From the NCBI GenBank assembly GCA_021157845.1, contig JAGGVU010000002.1, positions 31,376 through 95,375 on the forward strand: a stretch of DNA of 64,000 nt, given 5' to 3'. Both the position numbers and the translations under genes were made by a program. The DNA is from Candidatus Aenigmatarchaeota archaeon. Lineage in GTDB: Archaea > Aenigmatarchaeota > Aenigmatarchaeia > GW2011-AR5 > JAGGXF01. Below, piece after piece: positions 5,480 to 31,570 of the stretch (the stretch's first letter is position 1; every line of letters begins with the position of its first letter). A model generated the notes under the pieces. That model saw nothing but the letters and a program-made list of their open reading frames with translations. It was not told the origin of the DNA and searched no databases.

Positions 5480-5510
5480 CGTAACTTAAGTTTACCTTAA
5501 ATCTTTTTAT

Positions 5511-14405: not shown

Positions 14406-16226
14406 TCAGCCTTTTTTTATTTTTTTCAAGATGGAAGAAACTAATTTTCCATCTGCTCTGCGTCCGATCTTCTTCATCACTATTCCCATCAACGCGGAGT
14501 TGCCGAGAGTAGGGCTTTTTTCAACCACTTCTTTTACAATGTTTTTTATTTCGTCTTCTGAAAGTTTCTCATAGAGTTGAGCAGATTTTTTTATTTCTCC
14601 AGCTTTTGTTTTTTCTAGCAATTCAGGTATAGCATCTTTTGATATTCTTTTTTTCGCAATTAATTCAAATAAATCTATATAATCCTTTTCACCTAGTTCA
14701 ATTTTTACTCCCCTTCTTTTCAAATCTTTCAATACAGATGTAAATGTTGTTGCGACAAGAATCGGATCAACCTTAAATTTTTTAACAATACTCTCAAACA
14801 GGTTAAAATATTTTGACATGATAATCTGTTCAGCAATTTCTTTGGGCATTTCCTTCTTAAGCTTCTTTATCTTTTCTTCAATTGTTTCAGGTATTTTTAT
14901 TGTATTCAAATATTTGCGCGTCAATCGCACCGGAGGTATATCTGTCTCCGGATACAATCTGGCAGCACCAGGCATTGGCCTGAGAAATTTTGTGTTAGTT
15001 CCTTCCACACCCCTCACTTCATTTGGCACACCGTTTATAGCATACCTTGCCCTTTGTAGCACAAATCTCAGGGCACGGCTTGCTTTTTCAGGTTCAGCAA
15101 CAACAATTACAAAGGCATCCTGCTTTCTGCAATTGAGCGCTATTTTTGTTTGTTCAACCTCCTCTTTTGTTATCCCGTAAGCAGGTAGCTCGTCTGAATG
15201 GAATATACCGGAAACACCAGCTATTTTTGCATAATCAGATAACTCTGTGCCCAGACGTCTTCCAGGCTGAACTTCTTTACCTAAAAACCCTGCAAATCCC
15301 GGAAGCCTAACTCCCAAGACAACGCCATTTTTAAGCCCCTGTTTAATTATTTTTGACTTTGTATGTTCAAATGCCGATAGCACAGCAAAATCTGGAACAA
15401 GGTTTTCTTCGCTTGTTATTTTTTTTAGTTCTTTACTAATTTCCAAAAGGTTTTTCTGTCTTTTTACCTCGTTTTTGACAATGGCTGGCATCTCATCCAA
15501 ATTTTGCACGTGTTTTATTTCTACACGTGAGCCACCTCTTATAGAGACATTAATATCCTGCCTTATTGTTCCGAGACCGCGCCTGACTTTGCACGACCTG
15601 AGTATCATCCCAATTTTTTTTGCAACTTCTTTTACTTCTATTGGGTGATTGATATCAGGGCTTGTTGCTATTTCTACTTCTGCTATTCCCAATCTGTCAA
15701 GCCGGAATGTTGTGCTTTTTTCATCTTCTCTTATCCGCCTTCCAGCATCTTCTTCTATATTTATTGTTGGGATAAATATTTTTTTTCCATTTACCTCAAC
15801 AAACCCATCTGTTGCTATAAGTGCTGTCCGCTGAAATCCAGATGTGTTTGAGCCGTCAACAACTGTTTTTCTCATTACATGTATTTCATCAAGAGGCTCA
15901 GCGTTAAGTAGAAAAGCTACCTGCAAAGCAATGGTTAACGCCTCTTCATTCATCGGGTGCGGCGGTTCTGAATCTGTTTCAACTAGGCAGTTTGTATCAG
16001 AATACGCTTCATAAATATACATTTTATTTTTCTTTTCTTCATATAACGCAGCCTTGTCTTTTTTTTCTGTTTCTCCTGCAGCTGCTCTGAGCTTTCTTTT
16101 TATTATCAGGTCCGGATTCTCATGCCTAATGATGGCCGGGCAACTACAAAAAAGCTTGTGACTATCCAGTTCCTGATGTATTTCTATGCCAACTTTCAGC
16201 CCCAATTGTTTCCAGTTCTCATCCAT
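14406..16226 (-). CDS. gatE: Glu-tRNA(Gln) amidotransferase subunit E
   Basis: N-terminus MDENWKQLGLKVGIEIHQEL and a GatB/YqeY-like C-terminus. 606 aa. Confidence 0.9.
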   Translation of the reverse strand: MDENWKQLGLKVGIEIHQELDSHKLFCSCPAIIRHENPDLIIKRKLRAAAGETEKKDKAALYEEKKNKMYIYEAYSDTNCLVETDSEPPHPMNEEALTIALQVAFLLNAEPLDEIHVMRKTVVDGSNTSGFQRTALIATDGFVEVNGKKIFIPTINIEEDAGRRIREDEKSTTFRLDRLGIAEVEIATSPDINHPIEVKEVAKKIGMILRSCKVRRGLGTIRQDINVSIRGGSRVEIKHVQNLDEMPAIVKNEVKRQKNLLEISKELKKITSEENLVPDFAVLSAFEHTKSKIIKQGLKNGVVLGVRLPGFAGFLGKEVQPGRRLGTELSDYAKIAGVSGIFHSDELPAYGITKEEVEQTKIALNCRKQDAFVIVVAEPEKASRALRFVLQRARYAINGVPNEVRGVEGTNTKFLRPMPGAARLYPETDIPPVRLTRKYLNTIKIPETIEEKIKKLKKEMPKEIAEQIIMSKYFNLFESIVKKFKVDPILVATTFTSVLKDLKRRGVKIELGEKDYIDLFELIAKKRISKDAIPELLEKTKAGEIKKSAQLYEKLSEDEIKNIVKEVVEKSPTLGNSALMGIVMKKIGRRADGKLVSSILKKIKKG

Positions 16227-16423
16227 ACCCTTTTACCTCTTTTTTCAACAACCCTTACCCTGTGAAAGGGTATATCCTTTTGTAAAAATTTGTTAAGCGG
16301 AATTTTTATTATTCTTTGTTCAATCCTGTCCCAATATCCTATTTCATAATCTTCTGGGTTTTCCCTTTTATCCCATTTTATTTTATCTATCAACTCTTTG
16401 ATCGTTTTTATCAAAAATATCAC
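16196..16423 (-). CDS. DUF504-like small protein (IPFHRVRVV..GKRVWMR motif), translationally coupled between gatD and gatE
   Basis: 75-aa ORF that overlaps the gatD stop (ATGA) and the gatE start by 31 nt. Confidence 0.45.
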   Translation of the reverse strand: MIFLIKTIKELIDKIKWDKRENPEDYEIGYWDRIEQRIIKIPLNKFLQKDIPFHRVRVVEKRGKRVWMRTGNNWG

Positions 16424-17754
16424 ATCAAAAATGCATTTATTATCGATCTGCTTGTGATTTCTCCGGCAATATTTTCCATCATCATGGATTTGATTTTGTC
16501 AAAATCTTTTGTATGCCCTAATGCCCAGCATAATTTAACATATGCTGTTTCAGGCAACATATCCTGGCCTGGAATTGCGCCAGCATCGTAAAAAAGAATT
16601 CTTAGATTTGTATAGACATTTGGATTTATTCTTCCATATAGTGTCTGGGGAGCTATAACAACGGGTATTCCGTCTTTTGTCAGCTTTTTTATAACAGGAA
16701 TCCATGAATTTTTTGACTTTGTTGGAACATGGCCAAGCCCGGTGCCTTCTATTACAAATCCCTTGTACCCTTTTGATGCATAATATTCAAGCACATGGGG
16801 ATCTGAGCCTGGGTAAGCTTTTAGTAGTGCAACTTTTTTTTCAAATTTTGCATCGGCCTCCACCTTTTCACTATCGTTTCTTTTTTTGTAATTTTTGTTT
16901 ACTATCTCTATTTTGCCGTCATACCATATTTTTGCAAGTGGCAGTTCATTTATCGGTCTGAATGCGTCTCTTCTTGATGTGTGCATTTTTCTTACCTTTG
17001 TTCCCCTGCTAAACAGGCAATAGTCATCATTTATAGAGCCATGCATACATATTCCGACCTCTGCTATATCTGATGTTGCAACATAAGCAGAACACACAAG
17101 ATTCATTGTTGTATCAGCAGAGCCTCTGTCACTGCTTCTCTGTGCACCCACAAGAACAACAGGCTTATGAAGGTTTTTTAGTGCAAATGACAACGCAGCA
17201 GCTGTGTAGTGAAGTGTGTCTGTTCCATGTGTTATTATAACACTTTTATTACCTTTATTTAACAGTCTGGCTGTTTCTTTTGCTATTTTAGCCCAGTCAT
17301 CTGCATTCATATCTTCAGACATGCGTGCAAAAGGGGAAGATATTTCAGTCAGGTTTATTATTTCTCTGAGGCGTGGCGTGGTGTCAAGCAACTCATCTGG
17401 CTTTATAAGGGAGCGTACAGCACCGGTTTCGTAATCTATTTTGCTTGTTATTGTTCCACCTGTCGTTATTAACGCAACCTGTGGCTTGGTTTTGTCAAAA
17501 GAAAGAGCCGGTTTTTTTTCACTGGATTTTTTGGCCGGCTTAATTCTTCTAACAGATGCATTTCTGAAATCTATGCCAATATTGTACCCATTGGCCAGTT
17601 TTATGACGATACAGTTTGAGTCTCCCTGCGTCCTGGGCATTAACATACCTGTGTATGTTTTACTACCTTTTTTTATTTCTATTAAATCTCCAACACTAAT
17701 TTTTTGCGATTCTAGAGCATTTTTTATTTTTACAGAATAACCTTCAAATGTCAT
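16420..17754 (-). CDS. gatD: Glu-tRNA(Gln) amidotransferase subunit D
   Basis: Asparaginase-like domain (VALITTGGTITSK, HGTDTL) with an N-terminal GatD-specific domain. Confidence 0.9.
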   Translation of the reverse strand: MTFEGYSVKIKNALESQKISVGDLIEIKKGSKTYTGMLMPRTQGDSNCIVIKLANGYNIGIDFRNASVRRIKPAKKSSEKKPALSFDKTKPQVALITTGGTITSKIDYETGAVRSLIKPDELLDTTPRLREIINLTEISSPFARMSEDMNADDWAKIAKETARLLNKGNKSVIITHGTDTLHYTAAALSFALKNLHKPVVLVGAQRSSDRGSADTTMNLVCSAYVATSDIAEVGICMHGSINDDYCLFSRGTKVRKMHTSRRDAFRPINELPLAKIWYDGKIEIVNKNYKKRNDSEKVEADAKFEKKVALLKAYPGSDPHVLEYYASKGYKGFVIEGTGLGHVPTKSKNSWIPVIKKLTKDGIPVVIAPQTLYGRINPNVYTNLRILFYDAGAIPGQDMLPETAYVKLCWALGHTKDFDKIKSMMMENIAGEITSRSIINAFLM

Positions 17755-17902
17755 AATACTTATTCATGATAGGAGAATATAAAAATTTGTTTTATAAATA
17801 TACATATGTGATTAGGTCCATAGTGTTCGACAATTGTTAACTACTTTTGAGTAACGAAACCTTTAAATAGTCCCAAATCTATATATAAGACAGGTGATTT
17901 GT

Positions 17903-18265
17903 ATGAGTGAAATAAGTCCATCTGATGTTGTAAAAGATAATGATTTTGGAATGAATGGAAAATACGGTTGTGGACTGCTTGATTTAGTCAGAGGCATATA
18001 TGATAGAGTGGATATTTATCGTGGATATGAAGAGACCATTAAACCAAAAGACCTGACAGACTATAAAGCTAAAATTATCGAGTATCAAAGTGGTTTTGAT
18101 AAGCTTGCTAAGAAACTTTACGAATTAAGAAGGGATATAGAAAAATCACAAAAAAATAAACAGAAAAAACATGAATATGAAACAAATTTGAAGAAGATTG
18201 GGAAGGAATTTGGCTTTTTAGATTATCTAAACATTTACAAAAGTATGAATTCTCCTGACAATTAA
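17903..18265 (+). CDS. hypothetical protein
   Basis: ORF-track ORF 17894..18265. Internal ATG at 17903 is preceded by AGGTGA at a spacing of 5. Confidence 0.4.
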   Translation: MSEISPSDVVKDNDFGMNGKYGCGLLDLVRGIYDRVDIYRGYEETIKPKDLTDYKAKIIEYQSGFDKLAKKLYELRRDIEKSQKNKQKKHEYETNLKKIGKEFGFLDYLNIYKSMNSPDN

Positions 18266-18321: not shown

Positions 18322-18915
18322 ATGGTCTCAGAAATAGCTGAAATGCTTTTTTATGATATTCTTCAGATACAGCCATCTGTCATGACTGGCATATTTCTTA
18401 AGGATTTGCTGAATTTTTTGATACTGCCAACAATTGTTTTGCTTATATTTCTCGACTTTGCGGCAACTAAGTTTATAGGTGAGGAGAAGAAAGTATATAG
18501 AAAAATTCTTATAGTGGCATTTTATCTTATAATTGTGACACAGGGTTTCTACGGCCCTTTTGCAACATTTGCTGCTAATTATATGGTGATATTTCTTATT
18601 TTGGCTGGAGCTCTTTTTTTTGTCGGAAAAATATTTGGTGGACAATCTGCTTCAACTATTGGTAGAAAAATCGGAGATCTAAGAAATAAAAAAATAGAAA
18701 GGGAAGAACTGCGAATAAGGGAAAAAATATTGGAAGATACAATAAATGATATAGAAAGGGAGATGAATAGAATTAACGAATTTATAAGGAATAGTAGAGG
18801 AGAGGAAAGGTCAAGACAGGAAAGAATATTCAACGAATTGAGAAGGGAATTATCAGAAAAGAAAAAAGAATTAGAAAGGCTCCAAAAGATAGAAAAAAGG
18901 TCGTTAAGATATTAG
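18322..18915 (+). CDS. membrane protein, paralog family member 0 (TM N-domain + charged coiled-coil tail)
   Basis: N-terminal ~110 aa resemble the three downstream paralogs. The C-terminal 80 aa are a highly charged coiled coil. Confidence 0.5.
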   Translation: MVSEIAEMLFYDILQIQPSVMTGIFLKDLLNFLILPTIVLLIFLDFAATKFIGEEKKVYRKILIVAFYLIIVTQGFYGPFATFAANYMVIFLILAGALFFVGKIFGGQSASTIGRKIGDLRNKKIEREELRIREKILEDTINDIEREMNRINEFIRNSRGEERSRQERIFNELRRELSEKKKELERLQKIEKRSLRY

Positions 18916-19353
18916 GTGGTTGAAATGTTTGCACAATTTGACATAAATCTGGTCGCTTCATTTTTATTTGTATTTGCTGTAGTTTATGCTGTCTTGATTT
19001 ATTCTGCTATTTTGAAGCAGAAAAACATAAATGTTTTATTGTCTTTAGTTATAGCCTTTTTTGCTGTTTCCTATCAGCCGTTTGTTTCTATGATAACAGA
19101 ATTTATGCCATTTGCAAGTATTATACTGGTTATTTTATTTTTTGTTTTGTTTCTGAAAAAAATATTTGACAAAGAGAAAACAAAAGGAAATAATGAAATT
19201 ATAGCAATTTTATTTATCCTTTTACTGGTTGTCGGCTCAACATGGGGTCAAATAAAAAGTTATTTGCCTTTTGCATCTGACAATATCCTCTGGATTATAG
19301 GCATATTAGCATTTTTATTAATGCTTTATGTTGGCACTAGCGGGGAAAAGTGA
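18916..19353 (+). CDS. membrane protein, paralog family member 1
   Basis: Shares the ..F..VLP..FA...Y..L...N...SLVIAFF...Y.PFG.. pattern with 19422 and 19972. Confidence 0.55.
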   Translation: MVEMFAQFDINLVASFLFVFAVVYAVLIYSAILKQKNINVLLSLVIAFFAVSYQPFVSMITEFMPFASIILVILFFVLFLKKIFDKEKTKGNNEIIAILFILLLVVGSTWGQIKSYLPFASDNILWIIGILAFLLMLYVGTSGEK

Positions 19354-19421
19354 AAGAGAGTGAATAAACTTATTTAAATATAATCGTAATATATTTACTA
19401 TACAATGAGAAAGGAGGTTTT

Positions 19422-19907
19422 ATGATGACATGGGCAGTTGCGTTTTTAGGCAATCTTCAGCAAATGGCGTTTTTTGATTTTGTCTTGCCATGGCTTTTGG
19501 CATTTGCAATAATGTTTGGGGTGCTTACAAAGTCAAATATATTCAAGGAAAAAAATGTTAATGGACTAATATCTTTGGTAATAGCATTCTTTTTGACTAA
19601 TTACACACCATACGGAACATCTTTAGGTGCGTTTTTCACAACACTTTCTGGTTCAGCTATTCTCGTACTCTCAGGGCTTTTGGTTGTCTTGCTGTTCGCA
19701 GGCCTCATGGGTCTAAAGCCAGAAGATATATTGGGTGGAAACAAAACAGCACTTGGGTTATTCCTCTTGATAATAGGAATAATATTATTTATATCAGCAG
19801 GTGGAGAATCAGTTATCGGTGTTAATCTTGGAGGAGAAACACTGTCAGCATTATTTATGGTGTTGATAATAGCAGTTGCAGTGATGTTTGTAACCAAAGG
19901 CCAATAG
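19422..19907 (+). CDS. membrane protein, paralog family member 2
   Basis: FDFVLPWLLAFAIMFGVL...LISLVIAFFLTNYTPYG. Four TM helices. Confidence 0.55.
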   Translation: MMTWAVAFLGNLQQMAFFDFVLPWLLAFAIMFGVLTKSNIFKEKNVNGLISLVIAFFLTNYTPYGTSLGAFFTTLSGSAILVLSGLLVVLLFAGLMGLKPEDILGGNKTALGLFLLIIGIILFISAGGESVIGVNLGGETLSALFMVLIIAVAVMFVTKGQ

Positions 19908-19971
19908 ATTTATTAAAACATTTGACTTTGTTGAAGCCGGAAAAATATGAGTCAGAGGAGACGAAAATTAA

Positions 19972-20502
19972 ATGGCGTTCATAAATGAGTTTTTAGTTTA
20001 TCTTGAGCAAATGGATTTTTACAGCTTTGTTCTGCCCTTTATATTTAGTTTTGCCATTGTTTATTCGCTGTCACTCAAGGTTTTTGGCGGAAAAGACTCA
20101 AAAAGTGGTAATGCTGTTTCAACTATAATTGCATTAGTTTTTTCTTTTTACCTGACAGCTTATACACCATTTGGTACTACACTTTCAGCATTTTTCACGC
20201 AATTCTTTGGTCAAATGTCTATAGTAATAATTTCAGCCCTTTTTGTGCTGATTTTATTTGGGCTCGCAGGCTTAAGATTTTTCAGGGGAGAAGGCGGCGA
20301 GGGAATTTTTGATAAATACAAGAACCCGATTATATTGTTTATATTTCTTATAGTAGGAATTTATTTCATAAGCGCAGGAGGATTTTCTTTAAATATAAGC
20401 AGTAGCCTAACAAGAACAGCTATACTTTTATTTGTCATAATAATGGCAGTTCTGTTTGTTACAGGAAGCGAAGGAAAAACATCCGAAAAACCAGCCAAAT
20501 AG
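19972..20502 (+). CDS. membrane protein, paralog family member 3
   Basis: FYSFVLPFIFSFAIVYSL...IIALVFSFYLTAYTPFG. Four TM helices. Confidence 0.55.
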   Translation: MAFINEFLVYLEQMDFYSFVLPFIFSFAIVYSLSLKVFGGKDSKSGNAVSTIIALVFSFYLTAYTPFGTTLSAFFTQFFGQMSIVIISALFVLILFGLAGLRFFRGEGGEGIFDKYKNPIILFIFLIVGIYFISAGGFSLNISSSLTRTAILLFVIIMAVLFVTGSEGKTSEKPAK

Positions 20503-20579: not shown

Positions 20580-21317
20580 CTATCTCCCATCAGTGCTATC
20601 TTTCTGCTCTTCAAATCCAGATGCCTCTACTTCCTGATAAAGGCCTTTTCGCGGATTTTCCTCTTTATTTTCAACAAGTTCTTGCAGCTTCTGGATATTT
20701 TGCGTCATGGATGGCAAAACCTGTTTAAATGTTTTTTCCATCGCTCCTATTCGCGCTTCTATATCATCTATCCTTTCAGTCAAATTTTTTAGTTCATTTT
20801 TTAGCTCTGTATTGTCATTTGCTTTTGGGATTTCTATCTTGTTTATCTTTTCTCGTAGATTATCCCTTAGTATCAGGAAATCCTTGTTTAATTTTTTTAT
20901 TTGGTCGTCAATTTTTTTCCATTTTTCTTCGACAACGCCTTCTATCAGCTCCTCAAGAATCTCAGCAGAATCGCCGTATTCATCCACACCAGCTGATAGG
21001 TCAGGCACCGGTTCGGGACTTTCGCCAGAAGCGGTTGATAATGCTTGCTCTAAATTATCTGTCGGCTGTTGAGGAGGTGGCTGCTCTCCAAGACCAGCGG
21101 TTGTTGAGTAAAATTGGGGAACCGGTTCTTTTTTTTCTTCCTTTTTCTCAGTCAGGACACCACCTTTTATTGCCTGCATCATACCTTTTTCAATTTCCTT
21201 ATAATTATAACCTTTGGATTTTAGCTCTTTTATAATATCTGTTTCCTGCATACCTTTTGCAGACATTTCCTTTATATCATTCTCTACGTTTTTTTCCTTT
21301 TTATGCAAAAAAAACAT
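20580..21317 (-). CDS. coiled-coil protein with P/Q-rich linker, hypothetical
   Basis: 245-aa ORF with an N-terminal small domain, a PPPQQP linker and a C-terminal coiled coil. Confidence 0.45.
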   Translation of the reverse strand: MFFLHKKEKNVENDIKEMSAKGMQETDIIKELKSKGYNYKEIEKGMMQAIKGGVLTEKKEEKKEPVPQFYSTTAGLGEQPPPQQPTDNLEQALSTASGESPEPVPDLSAGVDEYGDSAEILEELIEGVVEEKWKKIDDQIKKLNKDFLILRDNLREKINKIEIPKANDNTELKNELKNLTERIDDIEARIGAMEKTFKQVLPSMTQNIQKLQELVENKEENPRKGLYQEVEASGFEEQKDSTDGR

Positions 21318-21335: not shown

Positions 21336-21740
21336 TTACTTTAGTCCTAATTTTCTATCTAACTCATCCCTTGTTACAAATTTTTGGCTTATTGGGTTTA
21401 TCAAATCAAACATGCTTTCCAATTCCTTTACATCTCTTTTTGTTGCGGTCTTTTCAAATTTCTCAAATATTTTTTCTATAAGATTTTGTACCTTTACCAT
21501 TTCGTTTTCCAGATTTTTCAACCTTGACTCAACAGCGGTCAACTTCTCCTTTAATGCTTTTTGATGATTAAATTCACGCTGCTCCAAAGAATTAAGCCGC
21601 GATTCAAGAGAGTCAAGCTTTTGCTCCACAGTCCGGAGACGCCTGTTTTCTCTATTAGAGCGCCTGACAAGTTCTTTCATTACCAACGCGCTTTGATTTT
21701 CAGCCATACAAGTTATCAACACCTGAAGATGTAATTTCAA
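21336..21740 (-). CDS. coiled-coil protein, hypothetical
   Basis: Heptad-rich ORF (repeated LxxLESRL). The true start may be the internal Met at about 21707. Confidence 0.45.
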   Translation of the reverse strand: MKLHLQVLITCMAENQSALVMKELVRRSNRENRRLRTVEQKLDSLESRLNSLEQREFNHQKALKEKLTAVESRLKNLENEMVKVQNLIEKIFEKFEKTATKRDVKELESMFDLINPISQKFVTRDELDRKLGLK

Positions 21741-22009: not shown

Positions 22010-24271
22010 GTGATAATTTGTATGGTTTGTGAATATTCTTACGATCCAAACACGAGAAAGATGCGTGTTGATTGTTTGGGATGCATATATGGAGCCAGTA
22101 TAGAAGATTCGCCAGAATGCATGTCAAGAACCATTGAAAAGCTTATGGAAGTTGGCCGAACTACCGGAGTTATACTTGCTGAAACAAGAGAATATGAGTA
22201 TGATGAGAGAAATACTGCGCTTCTTTTGGAAATTGCGCAGGCAGTTATAAAAATAGTAAAAACAGAAAAGCTTACTGCTATTAAAAATCTTGGAATAACA
22301 GAATGTGAAAAATGTGTTCCGCGCAGATTCAGCAAAATGCAGGACATTGTTTCAACACTTAAGTCAGACCCCATAGACGCTTATAAAATGCTTTTGAGAG
22401 AGATAAGACACGTCAATATGAATATAAAAAAAACACAAAATCCTCTTTGCATAAAATGTTATAACCATTACCTTAATCGTGCACTTATCCCGATAAAAAA
22501 TATCATTGAACCTTTACGTTTAATACAGTTATCTGCTGATAAAATAAAAAAGTCCGGCGACAGATCGATATACCGGGAGATATTTCACCCAACAATACGG
22601 CCGAATTTTATGTTTACAAGGTTTATATCTTTGCCGCCTGCCAATGCAGAGCCGCTTGACAGGTATACAGTAGGGGATGGAAATAGCGTTCAGATAGTTA
22701 AAATCCCTGGAAAGGTAAGGTTGTTATATCATATATCTCCATCTGAATTTAATTTAACAGAAGACGAATATATGTTGCTTGACAGCGCAAGAAACTATTT
22801 GTCAGAGCATAAACCAAAGGAAGCAGAACTAACCGATCCAGAAAGAATCAGGGAGCGATTTTATAATATAAATTTTGATTTATTAAATGAGCTGGCAGAA
22901 AGATACGGTAAGACCATACCTGCAAAAAGGTTGTCCAAGCTTGCGTCTATATTAACACGATATACAGCTGGGTTTGGTGTGCTTGAGCTATTGCTACAGG
23001 ATGAGAAGATACAGGATATTTCTATTAATTCGCCGGTTTCACAAAGTCCGATATATATATTTCACTCAGATTTTGGAGAATGTGAAACTAATTTGGTAGT
23101 TAGCCCGAAAGATGCGGAATCATGGGCAACAAGATTTAGACTTATGTCAGGTCGGCCTTTAGACGAGGCAAACCCAGTCTTGGACACAGAACTGATAGTG
23201 CCTGGTGGCAGGGCAAGGGTGGCTGCTATTACGCGCTCGCTGTCGCCAGAAGGGTTGGGGTTTGCTTTGCGCCGTCACAGGGAAAAACCATGGACATTTC
23301 CATTATTTATAAAAAACAAAATGTTGAACCCGCTGGGTGCAGGATTAATATGGTTTATAATAGATGGAGCAAGAACATTCTTGGTCGCAGGAACGCGGTC
23401 TTCGGGCAAAACTTCATTTTTAGGTTCGATGATGCTGCAAATAATGCCAAGTACAAGGATAATAACAGTGGAAGATACGCTTGAACTTCCGGTAGTTGCA
23501 CTGAAAAAATTAGGTTATGATATAGAAAGGTTAAAAAGCAGGTCAGTTATTACGCAGGTTAAGACAGAGTTACCAGCTGAAGAAGCTCTAAGAACATCGT
23601 TACGACTGGGAGATTCTTCTCTTATAATAGGTGAAGTAAGGTCAAGAGAGGCATTGGCATTGTACGAAGCTATGAGAATAGGCGCCCTTGCAAATGTTGT
23701 TGCCGGAACAATACATGGTGATTCACCATATGGTGTTTTTGATAGGGTTGTGAATGACCTTGGAGTTCCTGCTACAAGTTTCAAAGCCACAGATATAATA
23801 ATAATAGCTAATAGGCTTAAAACACCAGATGGTCTTCATAGCTTTAGGCGCATAACAGAGATAACCGAGCTGAGAAAACATTGGACAGAAACACCAGAAA
23901 AAGGAGGGTTTGAGCCTCTGATGCAATATTCTGCAAAAGATGATGAACTAAAGCCTACACCGACATTGCTGACAGGTGAAAGCACTATTCTGAACAACAT
24001 CAGTCAGAATATAAGAGAATGGCGGGGAAATTGGGATGCAATATGGTCTAATATAAATTTAAGAGCAAAAATTCTAAATCTTATAGTTGAAAGTGCAAAA
24101 AAAACAAATGATGATTCTCTTTTAGAAGCTCCGTTTGTTATGCAGTCAAACAATATTTATCATTTGTTGTGTGACGAGGTAAGAAAGGAAGTCGGAAGTC
24201 TTGATTCTGATATGATTTATGATAAATACGTTGCTTGGATAAAAGAGCAGATTAGAAAAAAGGAATTATAA
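22010..24271 (+). CDS. type IV pilus/archaellum-family secretion ATPase (FlaI/PilB/VirB11 superfamily) with Cys-rich N-terminal extension
   Basis: Walker A GTRSSGKTSF, Walker B-like IIGEVRSREA and a His box TIHGDSPYG. 753 aa, with about 250 extra N-terminal residues containing CxxC..CxxC..C. Confidence 0.8.
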   Translation: MIICMVCEYSYDPNTRKMRVDCLGCIYGASIEDSPECMSRTIEKLMEVGRTTGVILAETREYEYDERNTALLLEIAQAVIKIVKTEKLTAIKNLGITECEKCVPRRFSKMQDIVSTLKSDPIDAYKMLLREIRHVNMNIKKTQNPLCIKCYNHYLNRALIPIKNIIEPLRLIQLSADKIKKSGDRSIYREIFHPTIRPNFMFTRFISLPPANAEPLDRYTVGDGNSVQIVKIPGKVRLLYHISPSEFNLTEDEYMLLDSARNYLSEHKPKEAELTDPERIRERFYNINFDLLNELAERYGKTIPAKRLSKLASILTRYTAGFGVLELLLQDEKIQDISINSPVSQSPIYIFHSDFGECETNLVVSPKDAESWATRFRLMSGRPLDEANPVLDTELIVPGGRARVAAITRSLSPEGLGFALRRHREKPWTFPLFIKNKMLNPLGAGLIWFIIDGARTFLVAGTRSSGKTSFLGSMMLQIMPSTRIITVEDTLELPVVALKKLGYDIERLKSRSVITQVKTELPAEEALRTSLRLGDSSLIIGEVRSREALALYEAMRIGALANVVAGTIHGDSPYGVFDRVVNDLGVPATSFKATDIIIIANRLKTPDGLHSFRRITEITELRKHWTETPEKGGFEPLMQYSAKDDELKPTPTLLTGESTILNNISQNIREWRGNWDAIWSNINLRAKILNLIVESAKKTNDDSLLEAPFVMQSNNIYHLLCDEVRKEVGSLDSDMIYDKYVAWIKEQIRKKEL

Positions 24272-24283: not shown

Positions 24284-26323
24284 ATGGGATGGTTTGACAA
24301 CACCTTCGATGATAAAAAGGATAAAAAAAATATAAACAAAAAAAAAGAGCCACCGAAGGAACTTCAGACGCCAGAAACAAGAGAGTATAAAATTTTCAAG
24401 GAAGAAGAATTTTTTTTTGCCAAACATACGCTCTATGAAAAAGCATGTGCTATTGCAGAGAAGATATTGAAAATCAGCCCAGATAAAAAAACAGGATATC
24501 AGTTGGATAGGGCAATAAAGTTTACACATTTAAAATGCACAAAAGAGGGCGTGACATCGTTAGCATCTTTATTTTTATTTTTTTGGACATTCTTAATATT
24601 TTTTCTGGTTATCACAAAGTATATAACTGGGGTCGGAATATCCCTTATACTTGGTGGACTTATTTTTATTATCATTTCACCATTTGCTTATTATTTGTAT
24701 AAATATCCGCTTCACCTGAAAAAAAAATATGAGATTCATATAGGCAGTGAAATAGTGATGCTTATTCTGTATATGGTCATATATATGAAGGATCATGCTA
24801 ACTTAGAGGGGGCATTGGACTTCTCAGCCAAAAATTTAAGAGGGCCCCTTTCTTATGATATCAGGAAACTTTTATGGGATATTGAAGTTGGTGTCTACAA
24901 AACACCGGAAGAGGCGTTAATAGAATATGCATCCAATTGGAGAGAAAATAAAGAGTTTGTAGAGTCTATACAAACAATAATTTCCAGCCTTGCACAAACA
25001 GAAGACCGGCGGATAATCGTTTTAGACCAAGCCATGAATATAATCCTGAACGGAACAAGGGAGCGCGTAAAGAGATATAGCTATAAATTAAAAATGCCAA
25101 TTATGGTTGTTAACGCACTCGGAATAACGTTGCCAATCATGGGATTGGTTATGTTTCCAGTTATTGCTATATTTCTTTCAGACATATTCAAGCCAATAAT
25201 GCTGTTTGTGGGGTATGATGTATTGTTGCCTATACTGCTGTTTTTTATAATAGTAAATATTCTTGAAACCAGGCCTGTTACATTCAGTAAAATAGATATA
25301 TCTGACAATCCTTCGGTTCCTGCAGAGGGCAAGTTTAATCTGAAGCTTAAGAATATAACAAAGGAAGTTCCAGCATGGCCATTTGCTATTTTTATTGCGT
25401 CTCTTTTCTTTTTAGGAGGGCTATTCCTTTTCACAAAAGAGGCAGAAGGGCTGATAGCTTCTGTTTTAATGATAGCAGGTATAAATTTTGGGATAATGGT
25501 GTATAACTATCTTTTATCTTTCCAGCTTATCAAAATCAGGAAAGAGACAAGAGAAATAGAAGGGCAGTTTGCAGAGGCCTTATTCCAACTGGGCAACAGG
25601 GTTTCGTCGGGCGCTCCTATCGAAATTGCTCTTGAGAGAAGTGTTGCTGATATGGAGAATCTGACAATAAAAAACCTTTTCAAATCTGCGCTCTCAAATA
25701 TGCAGAATCTTGGTCTTACATTTGAGGGCTCATTTTTTGACAGGAAATACGGTGCTATAAAGCAGTATCCTTCAAAGCTGATAAAATCTGTTATGAGGTC
25801 CGTCATAGACTCAAGTAAAAAGGGTGTTCAGCTTGCTGCCACATCAATGCTTAACATATCGCGATATTTAAGAGATATACATGAAACACAGGAAGAAATT
25901 GAGGAAGAAATGGGGGATATCATAAGTTCTTTGAAATTTCAGGCGTTCTTTTTATCACCACTGGTTAGCGGCGTTGTTGTAACAACAGCTACTATAATAA
26001 TCAGAATATTAAATCAGCTACACCAGACAGTTGGCGGAATGACAAATGTTCCTGGTGGCGGATTCGGGACAAGTTTACTTGGTGCATGGGGACAAATACC
26101 AATTAACCCGGGCGCTTTTCAGCTTATAGTTGGCCTTTATCTTGTTGAGACACTTTTGCTGCTTTCTATGTTTATCAGCGGGATAGGAACTGGTGAAGAT
26201 AAAATAGGTAAAAGAGATCTCACAGCAAGTATTTTATTAATAGGATTTATAGTATATATAATATCATTGGGAATAACTTTATTAGTATTCGGCCCAATGG
26301 TTGCGATAGGTGTTGCGGTATGA
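24284..26323 (+). CDS. polytopic membrane platform protein (FlaJ/TadC/PilC-like)
   Basis: 679 aa with more than 9 TM helices and two cytoplasmic helical domains. Sits immediately downstream of the ATPase. Confidence 0.6.
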   Translation: MGWFDNTFDDKKDKKNINKKKEPPKELQTPETREYKIFKEEEFFFAKHTLYEKACAIAEKILKISPDKKTGYQLDRAIKFTHLKCTKEGVTSLASLFLFFWTFLIFFLVITKYITGVGISLILGGLIFIIISPFAYYLYKYPLHLKKKYEIHIGSEIVMLILYMVIYMKDHANLEGALDFSAKNLRGPLSYDIRKLLWDIEVGVYKTPEEALIEYASNWRENKEFVESIQTIISSLAQTEDRRIIVLDQAMNIILNGTRERVKRYSYKLKMPIMVVNALGITLPIMGLVMFPVIAIFLSDIFKPIMLFVGYDVLLPILLFFIIVNILETRPVTFSKIDISDNPSVPAEGKFNLKLKNITKEVPAWPFAIFIASLFFLGGLFLFTKEAEGLIASVLMIAGINFGIMVYNYLLSFQLIKIRKETREIEGQFAEALFQLGNRVSSGAPIEIALERSVADMENLTIKNLFKSALSNMQNLGLTFEGSFFDRKYGAIKQYPSKLIKSVMRSVIDSSKKGVQLAATSMLNISRYLRDIHETQEEIEEEMGDIISSLKFQAFFLSPLVSGVVVTTATIIIRILNQLHQTVGGMTNVPGGGFGTSLLGAWGQIPINPGAFQLIVGLYLVETLLLLSMFISGIGTGEDKIGKRDLTASILLIGFIVYIISLGITLLVFGPMVAIGVAV

Positions 26324-26629: not shown

Positions 26630-27631
26630 ATGAGAAAAAAAGGTCAATTTAGCTTTACAAAAGCCATTATTATTTTAGTAGTAGTTATTGCACTGTCTCT
26701 CTTGATATTATCAAAAGTAAGGGTGTTTAGCAGAGATTCGCTGAATGGAAAAATAAACTTAAATTTTGTTGAACTTCTAAATACGCCAGATATTTCAGGT
26801 TCTGTTTCTATGTCAGGAACAGATGCACAGGGAAACAGCCAGTATGAATATAATTTTAATGTTGGAAATATGGAGCTAAAGTATCATGGTGCTGATGAGA
26901 CAACTGTTATAATTATTTTTACATTTAAAGGCCCAACTGACAAGACACTTCCAATTGGCGAAATAAAACTAATACCAAACGAAATGGCTGAAATCGATCC
27001 GCCTGCTGTAAAATTTCAGATGTCATTAAAATCAGGAATTTTTGCTCAGGCGCCCCCTTCGTTTAATGGAAAAATAAACAGCACTGCTGGTGGTGTTTAT
27101 GTTGGAAATTTTTCAATATATGCAAGAATAAAGGAATGTAAGGAAACGACAAGCAGCGTAACAGGTCAAACAAAAAAGGAATCAAAAATAGATTTTGACG
27201 TCTACGGAAGGACAAATGAAACATCAGATATAGAGCAATTGGGAACGATCAGTTTTTGCTGCAGCTATGACAGCTATGGCAGTTCTAATAATATTTGTAC
27301 AGACTGCAAAGGGAATGAAACAACAACACAAACACTGGCAAATTTACCGGGCAATGGTGAGGTAGCTATCTCATATACTGGCATATGCGGCGAAGACATC
27401 ATGGCCGACCAAGGCATACCTATTACATATAATTGGGTAGATGTAGGAATAGATGCAAAAGGTGGGTACAAAAAAAGTTTAGAGAATTATAAAACTGTAT
27501 ATATAAGGTTTTTTAAAAAAAGCAGCTGCGTGGAAAATAATGGCAATGATTTATCTCAGCTTATGGGCAAATGTGCTGCTGATAATTATTTGGGAATGCG
27601 GTCTTTTGAAGCAGATGTGAAAGAAATATAA
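26630..27631 (+). CDS. large Cys-rich pilin-like protein with class III signal peptide
   Basis: N-terminus MRKKGQFSFTKAIIILVVVIALSLLIL. 333 aa with 8 Cys in the C-terminal half. Confidence 0.6.
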   Translation: MRKKGQFSFTKAIIILVVVIALSLLILSKVRVFSRDSLNGKINLNFVELLNTPDISGSVSMSGTDAQGNSQYEYNFNVGNMELKYHGADETTVIIIFTFKGPTDKTLPIGEIKLIPNEMAEIDPPAVKFQMSLKSGIFAQAPPSFNGKINSTAGGVYVGNFSIYARIKECKETTSSVTGQTKKESKIDFDVYGRTNETSDIEQLGTISFCCSYDSYGSSNNICTDCKGNETTTQTLANLPGNGEVAISYTGICGEDIMADQGIPITYNWVDVGIDAKGGYKKSLENYKTVYIRFFKKSSCVENNGNDLSQLMGKCAADNYLGMRSFEADVKEI

Positions 27632-27651
27632 TTATTTAATGATGATGCAAA

Positions 27652-27786
27652 ATGAAAAAATTTTTATGGGCTATAATATTGCTTGTTGCTGCAGTTTTTA
27701 TACTAACGCTATTTATACTGAAAGCTAAAAATATGGGCATAAGCCTTATTGAATATATAGCTGGTCTGAATCTGTTTGGTGGTTAA
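27652..27786 (+). CDS. small hydrophobic protein (44 aa; not in ORF track)
   Basis: MKKFLWAIILLVAAVFILTLFIL.. fills an otherwise noncoding gap within the operon. Confidence 0.25.
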   Translation: MKKFLWAIILLVAAVFILTLFILKAKNMGISLIEYIAGLNLFGG

Positions 27787-27927
27787 ATGGAAATGCAGGG
27801 TTTTTTGGTAAGGCTATTGATAATGCTTGCGGTGCTTGCACTTATTTTTTTACTGCTTAAAGGGATTGTACCGGGTTTTGATGAGTCAGTCAAAAATTTA
27901 GTATGTTATGCTTTTGGAAATTGTTAA
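27787..27927 (+). CDS. small hydrophobic protein (46 aa; not in ORF track)
   Basis: MEMQGFLVRLLIMLAVLALIFLLL.. In the same frame as the next pilin-like gene, separated by a single TAA. Confidence 0.25.
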   Translation: MEMQGFLVRLLIMLAVLALIFLLLKGIVPGFDESVKNLVCYAFGNC

Positions 27928-27936
27928 GGTGATATT

Positions 27937-29130
27937 ATAAATAAAAAAGGAGATATTGAGATAGGGCTGGCACAGATTATACAAGTTATTATAGCATTAC
28001 TTGTTATTGCAACGCTTGTTTCAATTTTCAATACAGGAGCCGCTGCCACCCGTGAACAAACAGCCTTTGTCACTGCACAGGCACTCGCTGCACGCATAAA
28101 TGAGGCGTGTTTAGACACAAGTCAAGAGAGTTTAGGCACAAGTCAAGAGATGGAGATAAATATTCCGCAAGGAAAGATAATGCCATCTGTAAATTCACTT
28201 GATCCCGGAACAACTGTCGAAGGCGCTTATATAAAGATGCTTGCAGACCCAGAATTTGTTCTTTATTACGAGAGTTTTCCAATAGGCGATGATATTTCAT
28301 GGACATTATACACAGACCTTCCTTATACTGTCTATGCTTCGCTTAACGACAGCAGGCAAACTATACAAAATTTTAACGAGCTGGAAGCAGATTTTGTTTC
28401 CAATGTTAAAAAAGAGGTCAGTGACTACCTTTTAACAAAGGGGGTTGATGATGATTATCTCAAAGACGTTGAAAACATGAATGTCTTCCTGACAAATAAA
28501 TTAGTTGGAGGCGAACTGGGCAGCTGGCATCATACGAGCGTTGCAGACATTTTTAATATTTCTTTTACAGGGTTTAATCTTGCTAAAGCTTCATCAATCA
28601 AATATTTAGCATGTGGGGATAATGCACTTTGCCTTAAAACTCATAAAAATATCTATAGATTTCCGCTTACTAATTGCGACGGTATAGATTCAATAGAATT
28701 GCACACAGACAGCTTTTGGTCTTTTGGTCACCAGCGGGGGTTTGGGCTGGCTAGTCCATGTAAGTTAAAGGTGAAAATTTACAGGGCAAGTGGAAATAAT
28801 TGTTATTGCCACCAAAAACTATCTACCCCGATTTTTAATGTCTCGGAAAATGGAACTGCCACAACTATCGGAAAGAGAACAATGTGTTTTAATGAGCTTG
28901 GTGAAGAAAAGGCAGATAATAATTTTCAGTGTATAATAGTTGAGGCAGTTGGCGGAGCAAAAGACGGAACATTTTGTTATGTAAAAGACAGAAGCTGGAC
29001 GTACAACAATATAGCTGAAGATTTAGAACTGGTTAAAAGCAGTAATAACATTTATCCTGTTCTTAAACCACCGAGGCACTGGAGAGGTAAGCTTGGACTT
29101 AAAAATATATTCTGGCGGTGGCCCGACTGA
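27937..29130 (+). CDS. large Cys-rich pilin-like protein; pilin-type N-terminus lies upstream of the first ATG (28150), candidate non-canonical ATA start
   Basis: In-frame upstream sequence reads (I)NKKGDIEIGLAQIIQVIIALLVIATLVSIF, matching the class-III signal peptides of neighbouring genes. AGGTGA lies 4 nt before the ATA at 27937. The ORF track gives only 28150..29130. Confidence 0.45.
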   Translation: MNKKGDIEIGLAQIIQVIIALLVIATLVSIFNTGAAATREQTAFVTAQALAARINEACLDTSQESLGTSQEMEINIPQGKIMPSVNSLDPGTTVEGAYIKMLADPEFVLYYESFPIGDDISWTLYTDLPYTVYASLNDSRQTIQNFNELEADFVSNVKKEVSDYLLTKGVDDDYLKDVENMNVFLTNKLVGGELGSWHHTSVADIFNISFTGFNLAKASSIKYLACGDNALCLKTHKNIYRFPLTNCDGIDSIELHTDSFWSFGHQRGFGLASPCKLKVKIYRASGNNCYCHQKLSTPIFNVSENGTATTIGKRTMCFNELGEEKADNNFQCIIVEAVGGAKDGTFCYVKDRSWTYNNIAEDLELVKSSNNIYPVLKPPRHWRGKLGLKNIFWRWPD

Positions 29131-29543
29131 TGTCAAAGGGTGCAGGAGCTCTGATAAAAGAGGTTTTATGCATAGTTATAGGGCTTATTATTTTTGCACT
29201 TTTCGCAGTTCCTATAATGCAGGCTACAGGCAACACAATTGCTGAAGCAGGTATGAACCTAAACGCAAGGTATCATTGCGAGCAAATAGCCGGAATATTG
29301 AACATGTTATCGTCTTCTGATAATATGACAGTATTTTATAAAATTCCTTCAGAAAAATGTAATGTGAATATAAATGTTAATAATTCAAAAAGTGTGGAAG
29401 TTTTTATTGACCAGTCAAGCTATCAAAAATCTTTCATCGACAGCAGCATCGAAATTGTTCCTGCTAGTTTTTCCTGTAAAAATGGTGCTGCATCTTTGAA
29501 ATTTGAAAAAAAAGGAGACAAAATTTTAATAACAGGTGGATAA
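29130..29543 (+). CDS. pilin-like protein with class III signal peptide
   Basis: MSKGAGALIKEVLCIVIGLIIFALFAV. The ATG overlaps the upstream TGA. Confidence 0.55.
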   Translation: MSKGAGALIKEVLCIVIGLIIFALFAVPIMQATGNTIAEAGMNLNARYHCEQIAGILNMLSSSDNMTVFYKIPSEKCNVNINVNNSKSVEVFIDQSSYQKSFIDSSIEIVPASFSCKNGAASLKFEKKGDKILITGG

Positions 29544-30287
29544 ATGGATATAGTAAAGACAATACTTTTGGTTATACGCATGGTTGCTTTTGGAGCTTTT
29601 ATTGTGTTTTTCTTTACAAACCTATTTAATGTAACTATATCTGCGGATAGTCACGACAGTGAAAGATTTTCAGTAGAGATATCTGAAAACCTTTTAGCTT
29701 CTGATCTGACAAATGGATATGCAGTTTTTGACACTGCCAAGTTAGACGAACTCGATAAGAAGCATATAGAGCCGATATACAGCTGTGAATTTGTTTATTT
29801 GGCGAACATAACTGATTTAGAAACTCATGATTACTGGCTGATTGGTTCTGACTTTGGGCATATAGTTAACAGTCTTGTCTTGCCCGTTAAAATTAATAAT
29901 AGCGGTTCAATACATAAAGGCAGTATGCTGTTATACATAATGGAAAACCCATTCTCAAAAGTGAGCTGCCTTTTGAACAAAGCTGAAGAAGAGGGGCAAT
30001 CAAGCCTGACACTTGACTGGAGCAAGGGCACTGTAAAAAATCCCAAGAAAGCAAAAGAATTAGAAGTTGAAATAAAATGGTTTGGTAATTATTTTTGTGT
30101 CATTGACAAATATAATACAATAGCAACATTTAATTTATATTATCCAAAACCGACCACTGTTTATATGTGTAGATATTCATCAACACCGCTGAGAGATTTC
30201 AGCTATGAAAAACCAATTAAAACACTTATTGCCATAAGAGAAAACGGGAAATTAAAGTTAGAAGCAGAAGGTTTTAATGATGAATAA
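29544..30287 (+). CDS. pilus-associated protein with N-terminal signal anchor
   Basis: MDIVKTILLVIRMVAFGAFIVFFF. Start is coupled directly to the upstream stop. Confidence 0.5.
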   Translation: MDIVKTILLVIRMVAFGAFIVFFFTNLFNVTISADSHDSERFSVEISENLLASDLTNGYAVFDTAKLDELDKKHIEPIYSCEFVYLANITDLETHDYWLIGSDFGHIVNSLVLPVKINNSGSIHKGSMLLYIMENPFSKVSCLLNKAEEEGQSSLTLDWSKGTVKNPKKAKELEVEIKWFGNYFCVIDKYNTIATFNLYYPKPTTVYMCRYSSTPLRDFSYEKPIKTLIAIRENGKLKLEAEGFNDE

Positions 30288-30795
30288 AATGCGATATATG
30301 ATAAAAGGCATGAGAAGTAGAAAAGGTGTTGCACCAATAGCTGATATGATTGTCACATTTGTCATAGTTCTTGCTGTTGTAATAAGCGTTGTTGCAATAC
30401 TTTTTTACACAACAGCAAAGGACAAACTACACACGCCGGCCGGGATAAACTACAATATAGATCTTGTGGTTGTCACAACCGAACCTTATTATTTTTCATT
30501 TTTATTTAATGAGCCGTTTTTAAGAGAAATTACCCGTGCAGCATACTCTTATCCAGCTTTAAGCCCGGATCCGGATTTGTCAATTAGATGTAAGAATATA
30601 TTTTCCCCGTATAATATGCTGAAATATAGCTTGTCAATAGAAGATTATATAGTATGCAATTTTACTGAGAATAAAAATATAGAGGGTGCTCAAATAGAAA
30701 TACCGTTAATATTTGAAAGAAGTGTAAAATATGCAAAACTGGAAACAAAGATGAAGGAGCCAGAAATTCCAGACATAGGTGTTAGGATCAAATAA
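30277..30795 (+). CDS. pilin-like protein with class III signal peptide
   Basis: ..MRSRKGVAPIADMIVTFVIVLAVVISVVAIL. True start is probably one of the internal Met codons. Confidence 0.5.
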   Translation: MMNKMRYMIKGMRSRKGVAPIADMIVTFVIVLAVVISVVAILFYTTAKDKLHTPAGINYNIDLVVVTTEPYYFSFLFNEPFLREITRAAYSYPALSPDPDLSIRCKNIFSPYNMLKYSLSIEDYIVCNFTENKNIEGAQIEIPLIFERSVKYAKLETKMKEPEIPDIGVRIK

Positions 30796-30805
30796 GGTGT
30801 ATAGA

Positions 30806-31510
30806 ATGAGTAAAGGATTTGCAACAGCAGTTATTGTGGCAATATTCATAGCTGCTGCTGCTATCGCAGGATTTGTTATTATGGATAACAAAATGAACCG
30901 GGAAAAAGAGATAATTATGAAAGAGCAGGAAATAATCTTAAGTGATGTTAATTTTCACCTTGCTGACCAGTCTCTTAAGGAGGGATATTATCTAACAACT
31001 GTTCAGATTATTTATGATTTGTGCAGCAATGGCTTTGGCAACACAATTTGGTATAACGGGACAAAGAATATACCTTCCCTTGGTGAAATAGAATCAAAAA
31101 CAGAGGAATCTATAAAAAACAATGCATATCAGGGAGAATTTATTATGAACGGCGTAAAAATAAGGGTAGACAAACTGTCAGCAAATGTCAATATAACTGA
31201 TAGACTGACCTATAACATAAGCTCTGTTATATCTGTAATCAAGCCCTCGACAGCTGGGCCAACAACAAAAAGTGGCAGAAGAGATTATTATGGCCTAATA
31301 AATGTTGACATACCAGATATGATTACCAAGGGAGAATGCGTTATAGATGCGCTATCATCTGGACTAGCTCCAAATTGTGGTTCTGGCATAACAATAGAAG
31401 ATGGAACAGAAAAAACAATAAAGATAAAATCTGCATCGCAAAATTATTTTTACGACGGAGAAAAGTTCACACAAAAGCCATTTGAGCTTGTTATTAAATT
31501 CAAAGAGTAA
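30806..31510 (+). CDS. pilin-like protein with class III signal peptide
   Basis: MSKGFATAVIVAIFIAAAAIAGFVI. AAGGTG lies 6 nt upstream of this ATG. The ORF track starts at 30779. Confidence 0.55.
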   Translation: MSKGFATAVIVAIFIAAAAIAGFVIMDNKMNREKEIIMKEQEIILSDVNFHLADQSLKEGYYLTTVQIIYDLCSNGFGNTIWYNGTKNIPSLGEIESKTEESIKNNAYQGEFIMNGVKIRVDKLSANVNITDRLTYNISSVISVIKPSTAGPTTKSGRRDYYGLINVDIPDMITKGECVIDALSSGLAPNCGSGITIEDGTEKTIKIKSASQNYFYDGEKFTQKPFELVIKFKE

Positions 31511-31570
31511 ATCACATAAGATGAAAAAAAATTATAAAAAGGGATACGAATATAATTAATCTGTGAGCAT

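Follow-up and report, generated by a model that had tools for sequence, protein, structure and literature searches.

A widespread family of small five-helix membrane proteins lies in a conserved gene module beside a pilus-type motor in DPANN archaea

In a 64-kb archaeal stretch of low G+C content (about 0.32-0.39), taken from contig JAGGVU010000002.1 of a Candidatus Aenigmatarchaeota archaeon and called the window hereafter, four consecutive + strand open reading frames (ORFs) at 18322-20502, named here g1 to g4, stand directly ahead of genes for a pilus-type machine. An earlier note on this DNA had described them as four paralogous membrane proteins of an unrecognised family. Our sequence comparisons indicate that g2, g3 and g4 belong to an unannotated membrane-protein family (hereafter the array family) which is widespread in DPANN archaea and lies in a conserved module with two coiled-coil protein families beside a pilus-type motor, and the finding is more interesting in this genomic context than as a simple array of paralogs. 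The array family is probably an undescribed accessory part of a pilus-type surface machine. We lean towards the view that its members form a structural membrane subcomplex, which the coiled-coil proteins would tie to the assembly ATPase of a type IV filament machine of DPANN archaea. An ORF check found all four genes at the coordinates first given for them:

g1, 18322-18915, + strand: 197-aa protein with a short N-terminal helix, three transmembrane (TM) helices and a charged coiled-coil tail of ~88 aa, predicted to be cytoplasmic
g2, 18916-19353, + strand: 145-aa five-TM protein of a divergent, first-position subfamily (family hidden Markov model, HMM, 3e-24)
g3, 19422-19907, + strand: 161-aa core family member with five TM helices (family HMM 3e-57)
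g4, 19972-20502, + strand: 176-aa core family member with an N-terminal helix and five TM helices (family HMM 2e-45)

The relationships among the four proteins were assessed by BLASTP and by a family profile. g3 and g4 are 38% identical over their full length (E=5e-27), while g2 aligns with g3 at E=2e-12 and with g4 at E=3e-6. An HMM built from 80 family sequences and run on the window matched g2, g3 and g4 over their full length, with the N-terminal core motif G-F-[FY]-x-F-x-L-P-[FW]-L-L-x-F-A-I-x-Y-G-x-L-x-K ... A-F-F ... Y-x-P-x-G, and gave no match to g1. In g2 the LP of this motif is replaced by AS and the remainder is retained. BLASTP of g1 against g2, g3 and g4 was non-significant (E 0.065-0.63). 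By sequence, g2, g3 and g4 are thus proven paralogs, as the earlier note had claimed for all four, whereas the paralogy of g1 is unproven; the defensible statement is that of three proven paralogs and one conserved partner. The start of g2 is most likely ATG 18925 (142 aa) rather than GTG 18916: a GGTGG lies 6 nt upstream of it, and it agrees with the Joint Genome Institute (JGI) gene call on a 99%-identical contig.

The extent of the family was established by an exhaustive HMM search, in which a profile of g2-g4 was run against 1.84 billion cluster representatives (50%-identity clusters). At E<=1e-3 this search returned 1,453 representatives, of which 226 reached E<=1e-10; almost all are 150-200 aa in length and align from end to end. 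Word-indexed protein search proved insensitive for these low-complexity proteins, as g4 retrieved only its 99% copy while the g1 alignment gave 5 matches and the family alignment 27. Over an alignment of 80 sequences the family core reads ..L..lGF[YF]dFvLP[WF]LL.FAI.YG.L.K...FG....N..I[AS].V.AFF...Y.P.G...fF..lFG. Matches in named genomes are mostly from DPANN archaea (Aenigmatarchaeota, Nanohaloarchaeota), and the sole name that the sources give to family members is "hypothetical protein". No Pfam or NCBIfam model reached threshold for any of g1-g4 or for 80 family members; the matches to these two databases were scattered and sub-threshold (DUF7548 at 0.11, Pox_P21, pLS20_p028, Acyl_transf_3, DUF2070, TrbC), none recurring consistently from member to member. 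The PDB yielded no relative of the family, either by sequence profile or by fold. The label "unrecognised" was therefore apt, and our searches indicate that the array family is real, old and widespread in DPANN archaea.

Past the array, the window holds two convergent coiled-coil ORFs followed by a pilus-type locus with ATPase, platform and pilin-like ORFs, both as the earlier note had read them:

cc245, 20580-21317, - strand: 245-aa protein, a conserved partner of the array, in which a small helical domain at the N-terminus is joined to a C-terminal coiled coil through a linker rich in Pro, Gln and Glu
cc134, 21336-21740, - strand: 134-aa coiled-coil protein, divergent from the ATPase gene, a conserved partner
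ATPase, 22010-24271, + strand: 753-aa T2SSE-family type IV filament assembly ATPase (Pfam T2SSE 2.5e-15)
Platform, 24284-26323, + strand: 679-aa FlaJ/TadC-type platform membrane protein (Pfam T2SSF 4.3e-8)
Pilin-like run, 26630-31888, + strand: seven ORFs, pilin-like candidate filament subunits, read from the translations

The association of these genes was examined in two sets of loci. Family-selected loci were obtained by scanning one genome per species for the motif GF[YF]DF[VIL]LPW (a 15-sequence subset alignment was used), and their ORFs were searched with HMMs built from the window proteins. The 32 loci of this set come mostly from Aenigmatarchaeota and from metagenome-assembled genomes (MAGs) labelled Nanohaloarchaeota or Nanobdellati, with one on a short contig binned as Methanosarcinales. 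A block recurs among them, made of a g1-like gene, two to five family genes, cc245, cc134, a T2SSE ATPase of ~750 aa with its N-domain of ~300 aa, and the T2SSF platform. cc245 and cc134 adjoin the array in 19 family-selected loci, where, as far as the length of the flanks permitted, the ATPase gene was present in 14 and the platform gene in 13. The reverse test started from the ATPase: an alignment of its clade-specific N-terminal region was scanned against a metagenome collection and 80 loci were kept, the counts being restricted to the 28 in which the sequence ahead of the ATPase gene is 4.5 kb or longer. The array family was found in 22 of these 28, cc245 in 22 and cc134 in 22, and the family occurred together with both coiled-coil genes in 22.

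Gene order varies around this common content. In the commonest layout cc134, cc245 and the array lie on one strand, divergent from the ATPase-platform pair. The array and cc245 share a strand in 31 loci and lie on opposite strands in 23, the window being a case of the latter. Only 26-65 nt separate cc245 from the array in 11 of the 31 same-strand loci, a spacing that implies a single operon there. The platform gene is conserved beside the ATPase gene in related loci, and the distant family members P0174 and P0176 also lie beside T2SSE genes. The earlier observation that the array adjoins surface-structure genes is strengthened by these data, since many genomes and metagenomes keep the array linked to the ATPase, the platform and both coiled-coil genes. 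Conserved co-location with T2SSE ATPase and T2SSF platform genes, as taken to mark an accessory component of a type IV filament system, is thus seen for the family, with exceptions that are weighed below.

The coiled-coil proteins and the ATPase have conserved features of their own. Homologs of cc245 share an extreme N-terminal motif, M-x-L-F-x-K-K-K, in which K6 is nearly invariant, followed by a helical domain that resembles ..G(M/L)..(D/E)I...LK..GY...EI..AM...; to judge from its sequence, the motif could be a membrane- or partner-binding peptide. The Pfam matches of cc245 are all to coiled-coil models and below threshold, the most consistent being DUF7310 (9 of 18 members, best E 1e-5). 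cc134, whose start is probably ATG 21707, carries a conserved C-terminal ..DLINP.. motif. Its matches in Pfam and the PDB are generic coiled-coil ones, with FlaC_arch below the cut-off (E 7e-3 for the window protein and 8e-4 for one of 18 homologs). Neither cc245 nor cc134 has a TM segment or a signal peptide, and both are therefore taken to be cytoplasmic. The clade alignment of the ATPase shows a Cys-containing N-terminal extension of ~300 aa that is specific to its clade, and its NCBIfam matches of FlaI/TadA type fall below the cut-offs. The pilus-type ATPase ORF reaches 1,267-2,003 aa in several other loci (L038:12541-16707, L039:2979-7145, L015:3230-9241 and L098:9428-13231). The long ORFs of L038 and L039 match Pfam Intein_splicing and LAGLIDADG_3, and we therefore take this ATPase clade to be a repeated host of inteins.

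The topology of the array proteins was deduced from hydropathy and AlphaFold2 (AF2) models. In both, g2-g4 begin with a short helix that precedes five TM helices, so that the three to four helices of the earlier note are wrong for these proteins; g1 has three. The g4 model (predicted local distance difference test, pLDDT, 81.7) places helices at residues 2-13, 16-37, 44-63, 71-98, 119-135 and 145-165. Residue conservation and charge pattern were scored on 316 non-identical family members. Basic residues (Lys, Arg) cluster in two loops, TM1-TM2 and TM3-TM4, and at the C-terminus; the remaining loops, like the N-terminus, are acidic or neutral. By the positive-inside rule this distribution therefore predicts, for the family, a topology with the N-terminus outside and the C-terminus inside. 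Such a topology would place the g1 tail and the C-terminal tails of the family in the cytoplasm, alongside cc134, cc245 and the ATPase; some bona fide core members elsewhere, for example P0115, bear C-terminal coiled-coil tails of their own.

The residues conserved in the family are of glycine, proline, aromatic and aliphatic types. The conserved positions are G15, L21, P22 (83%), F/W23, F27, A28, Y/F31, L34 (86%), K36, F59, Y/F64, P66 and G68. Across the 316 members no acidic or polar residue is conserved inside any TM helix, and neither a conserved Asp pair nor a GxGD motif was found; the Asp of GFYDF occurs in 36% of members only. This conservation pattern, with no charge kept in the membrane, suggests a packing or scaffold role and speaks against proteins that act as enzymes, as prepilin peptidases or as ion-conducting stators.

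In order to describe the make-up of the arrays, 91 family ORFs from genome loci were clustered. The g2 type came out as a distinct subfamily (cluster 6), which stands directly after the g1-type gene in most loci that have one. Core copies, of g3/g4 type, number two to three per locus in the clustered set. Arrays of the family-selected loci have two to five family copies, and metagenome loci up to six family ORFs. Positional orthology of the g3 and g4 types across loci was rejected, as the best match lay at the same position in 331 comparisons and at the other position in 280. The mean score is 91 bits between paralogs of one locus and 78 bits between genes at matching positions of different loci. 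Judged from these comparisons, the array is an old pair of g1 and g2 type, followed by core copies that were duplicated or homogenised within lineages. The lineage-specific expansion put forward in the earlier note is accordingly retained for the core copies alone and not for the family, which is old and widespread in DPANN archaea, with the g2 type as a separate conserved subfamily.

The first gene of the array deserves separate treatment. The AF2 model of g1, built from a 6-sequence alignment, has low overall confidence (pLDDT 63) and was taken for secondary structure alone; its helices span residues 2-13, 23-52, 57-75, 78-106, 110-157 and 161-196. Residues ~110-197 are highly charged and predicted to form two long helices, with block pLDDT values of 82-87 over ~131-190, so that hydropathy and AF2 both bear out the charged tail first read from the translation. 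Homologs of g1 were found in 13 loci, mostly immediately upstream of the first array gene, and on this evidence g1 belongs to a conserved g1-type family sited directly upstream of the array.

Whether this g1-type family is related to the array family was assessed with hhalign. The array-family profile against the g1 sequence alone gave a probability of 4%, and the g1-family profile against the array-family profile gave 35% (score 31, 71 columns), in the register that the earlier note had drawn: LP in TM1, then a basic loop, then an aromatic-Gly after TM2. Controls for the g1 profile scored at most 16 for column shuffles and 11 for reversed profiles. Without its coiled coil, the g1 profile scored 20-28 against family-type profiles, and matched reversed controls scored 11-17, with one at 28.5. 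The N-terminal helix pattern of the low-confidence g1 model is like that of g4. From these data g1 is plausibly, and on balance in our judgement, a very divergent relative of the array family.

In groundwater Aenigmatarchaeota (loci L006, L010, L013, L016 and L019) two larger relatives of 275-305 aa stand upstream of the array where the g1 type would be expected, for example L010:4366-5283 and 5300-6127. They have a signal-peptide-like N-terminus and a family-like first TM motif; one ends in a soluble tail and the other in a coiled coil. In profile comparison they looked like a bridge, with probabilities of 94-96% to the array family and 72-86% to the g1 family. A paralogy of g1 by way of such intermediate families, which had scored 86-96% at first, was nevertheless rejected: reversed controls reached ~30, removal of the coiled coil brought g1 to 20-28, and the matches of 72-86% were partly due to coiled-coil columns. 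Homology by this route is not claimed.

Taken with the conserved neighbourhood, these properties suggest how the module might work. A DPANN-specific type IV filament machine would contain an integral-membrane subcomplex, built from g2-g4 and probably also from the very divergent g1. Its small five-TM proteins would serve a structural purpose, neither catalytic nor ion-conducting, and would probably form a homo- or hetero-oligomer around or beside the FlaJ/TadC platform. g1, with its three TM helices and a coiled coil of ~88 residues projecting into the cytoplasm, could pair with cc134 and cc245. Together the g1 tail, cc134 and cc245 would make up a scaffold that joins the membrane subcomplex to the clade-specific N-domain of the hexameric ATPase. 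In function such a scaffold might be analogous to ArlX/ArlCDE of the archaellum or to PilM/N/O of bacterial type IVa pili, an analogy with no claim of homology. We infer in this way a physical assembly of the proteins, a contact with the ATPase or the platform, and any role in pilus assembly, anchoring or host contact.

Several observations weigh against this structural role. Six of the 28 ATPase-selected loci have no family gene, and neither a T2SSE gene nor a coiled-coil gene lies within reach of the arrays in L009, L014, L017, L024, L034 and L120; given these exceptions, the link to the pilus genes is strong but non-obligatory. The loci come from related DPANN lineages, and their synteny could be partly inherited rather than selected. 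Moreover, the core copies show no positional orthology, which weakens the idea of a fixed g3/g4 hetero-oligomer. The isolated arrays would suit an alternative in which the array, g1 included or not, makes a separate membrane complex with a function in, for example, the envelope, transport or membrane organisation, and owes its place near the pilus genes to no more than an inherited neighbourhood in compact DPANN genomes. It would also explain two Aenigmatarchaeota loci in which GatE-GatD are kept upstream of the array, L014 (293-3568) and L024 (228-3810), and pilus genes are absent downstream, the upstream synteny therefore persisting where the pilus link is lost, as well as the single dispersed family copies of six loci (L012, L021, L028, L029, L031 and L033). 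We regard this alternative as rather unlikely in view of the 22 of 28 ATPase-selected loci that contain the family and both coiled-coil genes, of an adjacency that survives inversions and occurs in tight same-strand operons, and of the distant members that are likewise linked to T2SSE genes.

Other functions for the array proteins agree less well with the data. Small polytopic proteins encoded in multiple copies beside a filament motor, along with a membrane-anchored coiled-coil protein such as g1, loosely recall stator/scaffold pairs, and by this analogy the five-TM proteins might conduct ions and drive the movement of the filament machine with that flow, as a stator or energising unit of the MotA/ExbB/TolQ kind. 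We consider this improbable: no acidic or polar TM residue is conserved in the 316 sequences, Pfam, NCBIfam and PDB searches gave no similarity to MotA, ExbB or TolQ, and no single-TM partner with a conserved Asp was found, so that the proteins were not assigned to that class. Very improbable, in turn, is that they are substrates of the pilus system, as unusual pilin-like subunits, or its divergent prepilin peptidase. Tandem duplication of small proteins with a conserved N-terminus is typical of pilins and archaellins, and no prepilin peptidase was noticed in the locus, no scan of the window having been aimed at one. However, a class III signal-peptide motif is missing from the N-termini, which are acidic or neutral, five TM helices would block extraction into a filament, and the proteins have no soluble domain, on which grounds a place among pilins or archaellins was rejected. 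Assignment to the prepilin peptidases (Peptidase A24; PibD/FlaK/EppA) failed likewise, with no Asp dyad or GxGD, the GFYDF Asp in no more than the 36% of members given above, and no Peptidase_A24 match in Pfam. Lastly, the resemblance could reflect generic hydrophobic composition and no real family, the outcome by which the earlier note would have been refuted. This applies in part to g1, whose match is barely above reversed-profile controls. For g2-g4 it is ruled out by the BLASTP and HMM scores and by specific shared motifs, with hundreds of full-length homologs conserved position by position, and the scores of reversed profiles, or of profiles with shuffled columns, against the family are far lower; as an account of the whole array it is scarcely credible.

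The proposed scaffold was compared with known motor-associated systems. In the archaellum, the genes of ArlX (FlaX) and ArlC/D/E adjoin those of a FlaI-type ATPase and a FlaJ platform. Their products are coiled-coil proteins, membrane-anchored or soluble, which are believed to surround the motor as a cytoplasmic ring. g1, with its TM segments and cytoplasmic coiled coil, and cc134 and cc245 resemble them in general build and genomic position. However, there is no significant sequence similarity, the FlaC_arch matches being below threshold; ArlX has one TM helix against three in g1, and the archaellum has nothing like the five-TM array. Pfam and NCBIfam scans found no recognisable ArlH, ArlF, ArlG or archaellin genes in the locus. 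With FlaC_arch below the cut-off and no archaellum-specific genes in the locus, g1, cc134 and cc245 were not assigned to ArlX/ArlCDE. A similar comparison holds for PilM/PilN/PilO of type IVa pili and GspL/GspM of type II secretion, which are accessory proteins of the inner membrane that contain coiled-coil segments, link the cytoplasmic ATPase side to the platform and have their genes among those of the core. PilN, PilO and GspM are single-pass proteins with periplasmic domains, whereas the array proteins are polytopic with almost no extramembrane mass, and no homology of the locus proteins to PilM/N/O or GspL/GspM was found in Pfam, NCBIfam and PDB searches. The array may also be likened to CedA, CedA1 and CedA2 of the crenarchaeal Ced DNA import system, small polytopic membrane proteins encoded beside a secretion-type ATPase. 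That ATPase is of VirB4/HerA type and not part of a T2SSE/T2SSF pair, and the Pfam scan of the array family gave one weak TrbC/VirB2 match among 80 members (E 0.007), with no fold match.

Archaeal type IV filament subsystems share a core with our locus, namely the T2SSE ATPase, the T2SSF platform and pilin-like genes. The catalogues of Makarova et al. 2016 (PMC4858521), an arCOG-based census of archaeal type IV pili, and of Sivabalasarma & Albers 2026 (bioRxiv 10.64898/2026.04.22.720090), a MacSyFinder-based reclassification, lead one to expect subsystem-specific accessory membrane and coiled-coil proteins. An example is the coiled-coil protein arCOG07564 of subclade 4F of the halobacteria, a subclade whose ATPase clade has members in nanoarchaea too; the sub-threshold DUF7310 matches are the one hint of an identity of cc134/cc245 with it. 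Within the limited coverage that these two catalogues and a survey of archaeal "dark matter" (PMC6393860) offered in the parts available, neither a tandem five-TM family nor a cc134/cc245 pair is described. Sivabalasarma & Albers argue on structural grounds (bioRxiv 10.64898/2026.04.22.720090) that subsystem-specific ATPase N-domains dock subsystem-specific accessory proteins, a proposal that fits the co-occurrence of ATPase N-domain and module found here.

Current catalogues of archaeal type IV filaments rest on arCOGs, which cover DPANN genomes poorly. If the module is part of the machine, the five-TM family and its g1-type relative, with cc245 and cc134, would be testable components of a DPANN-specific pilus apparatus, and the module would give a sequence signature for spotting such an apparatus in metagenomes. 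It would also be a case of a clade-specific ATPase N-domain co-occurring with clade-specific accessory proteins.

DPANN archaea are ultrasmall and mostly host-dependent, and their attachment to hosts is largely unexplained. By cryogenic transmission electron microscopy, He et al. 2021 (PMC7906910) observed ultrasmall groundwater cells, probably of the Candidate Phyla Radiation or DPANN, with pili-like appendages reaching into host cells. Many of the loci used here are from MAGs labelled NC_groundwater, apparently from a groundwater survey like theirs. A bolder proposal, to which we grant an outside chance, is that the five-TM array, g1, cc134 and cc245 form a ring in the membrane and a cage in the cytoplasm, a structure peculiar to the pilus machines of DPANN archaea, by which the motor is adapted to an episymbiotic lifestyle; such a structure might anchor or gate host-penetrating filaments, or form the membrane part of a cell-cell contact apparatus. 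If this were true, it would represent a lineage-defining DPANN component of host interaction with no counterpart in other archaea or in bacteria.

Several further features of the window and of related loci were recorded. In the pilin-like run, several of the seven ORFs begin with a short basic N-terminus followed by one hydrophobic helix, and none of the seven has a Pfam match. The small Cys-rich proteins encoded at 31571-31888 and 37032-37442 share a pilin-like N-terminus, ..KGISLP(V/I)NM(V/L)(I/V)IL.., the second lying 5 kb past the pilus locus and being matched by an HMM built from the first. On this resemblance the two may be major-pilin paralogs. Straight after the run, window positions 31963-33047 hold overlapping ORFs (210 and 158 aa) that look by eye like a nucleotidyltransferase/HEPN-type pair.

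GatE and GatD (14406-17754) lie a short way upstream of the g1-g4 block, and downstream of it are genes for Alba, tryptophanyl-tRNA synthetase and a CCA-adding enzyme. Between GatD and g1, a 123-aa ORF at 17894-18265 encodes a charged, coiled-coil-like protein; no homolog of it was found in any related locus examined, and it is therefore placed outside the conserved module. Between this ORF and g1, an oligo-T run and a TTTAAATA box were read by eye, which suggests that g1 begins its own transcription unit. Just ahead of the module in L010, the product of a 408-aa ORF (2435-3661) resembles, on visual inspection, a TnpB/OrfB protein of the IS200/IS605 type with a Zn-finger motif at its C-terminus. 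Finally, genes of the window recur on two public JGI metagenome contigs. L001 (Ga0164318_10091232) carries a 99%-identical g4 (P0001) together with g2, g3, cc245 and cc134 in matching order, and L040 (Ga0164310_10002546) matches the ATPase N-domain query at 100% identity; those metagenomes therefore sampled this organism or a very close one.

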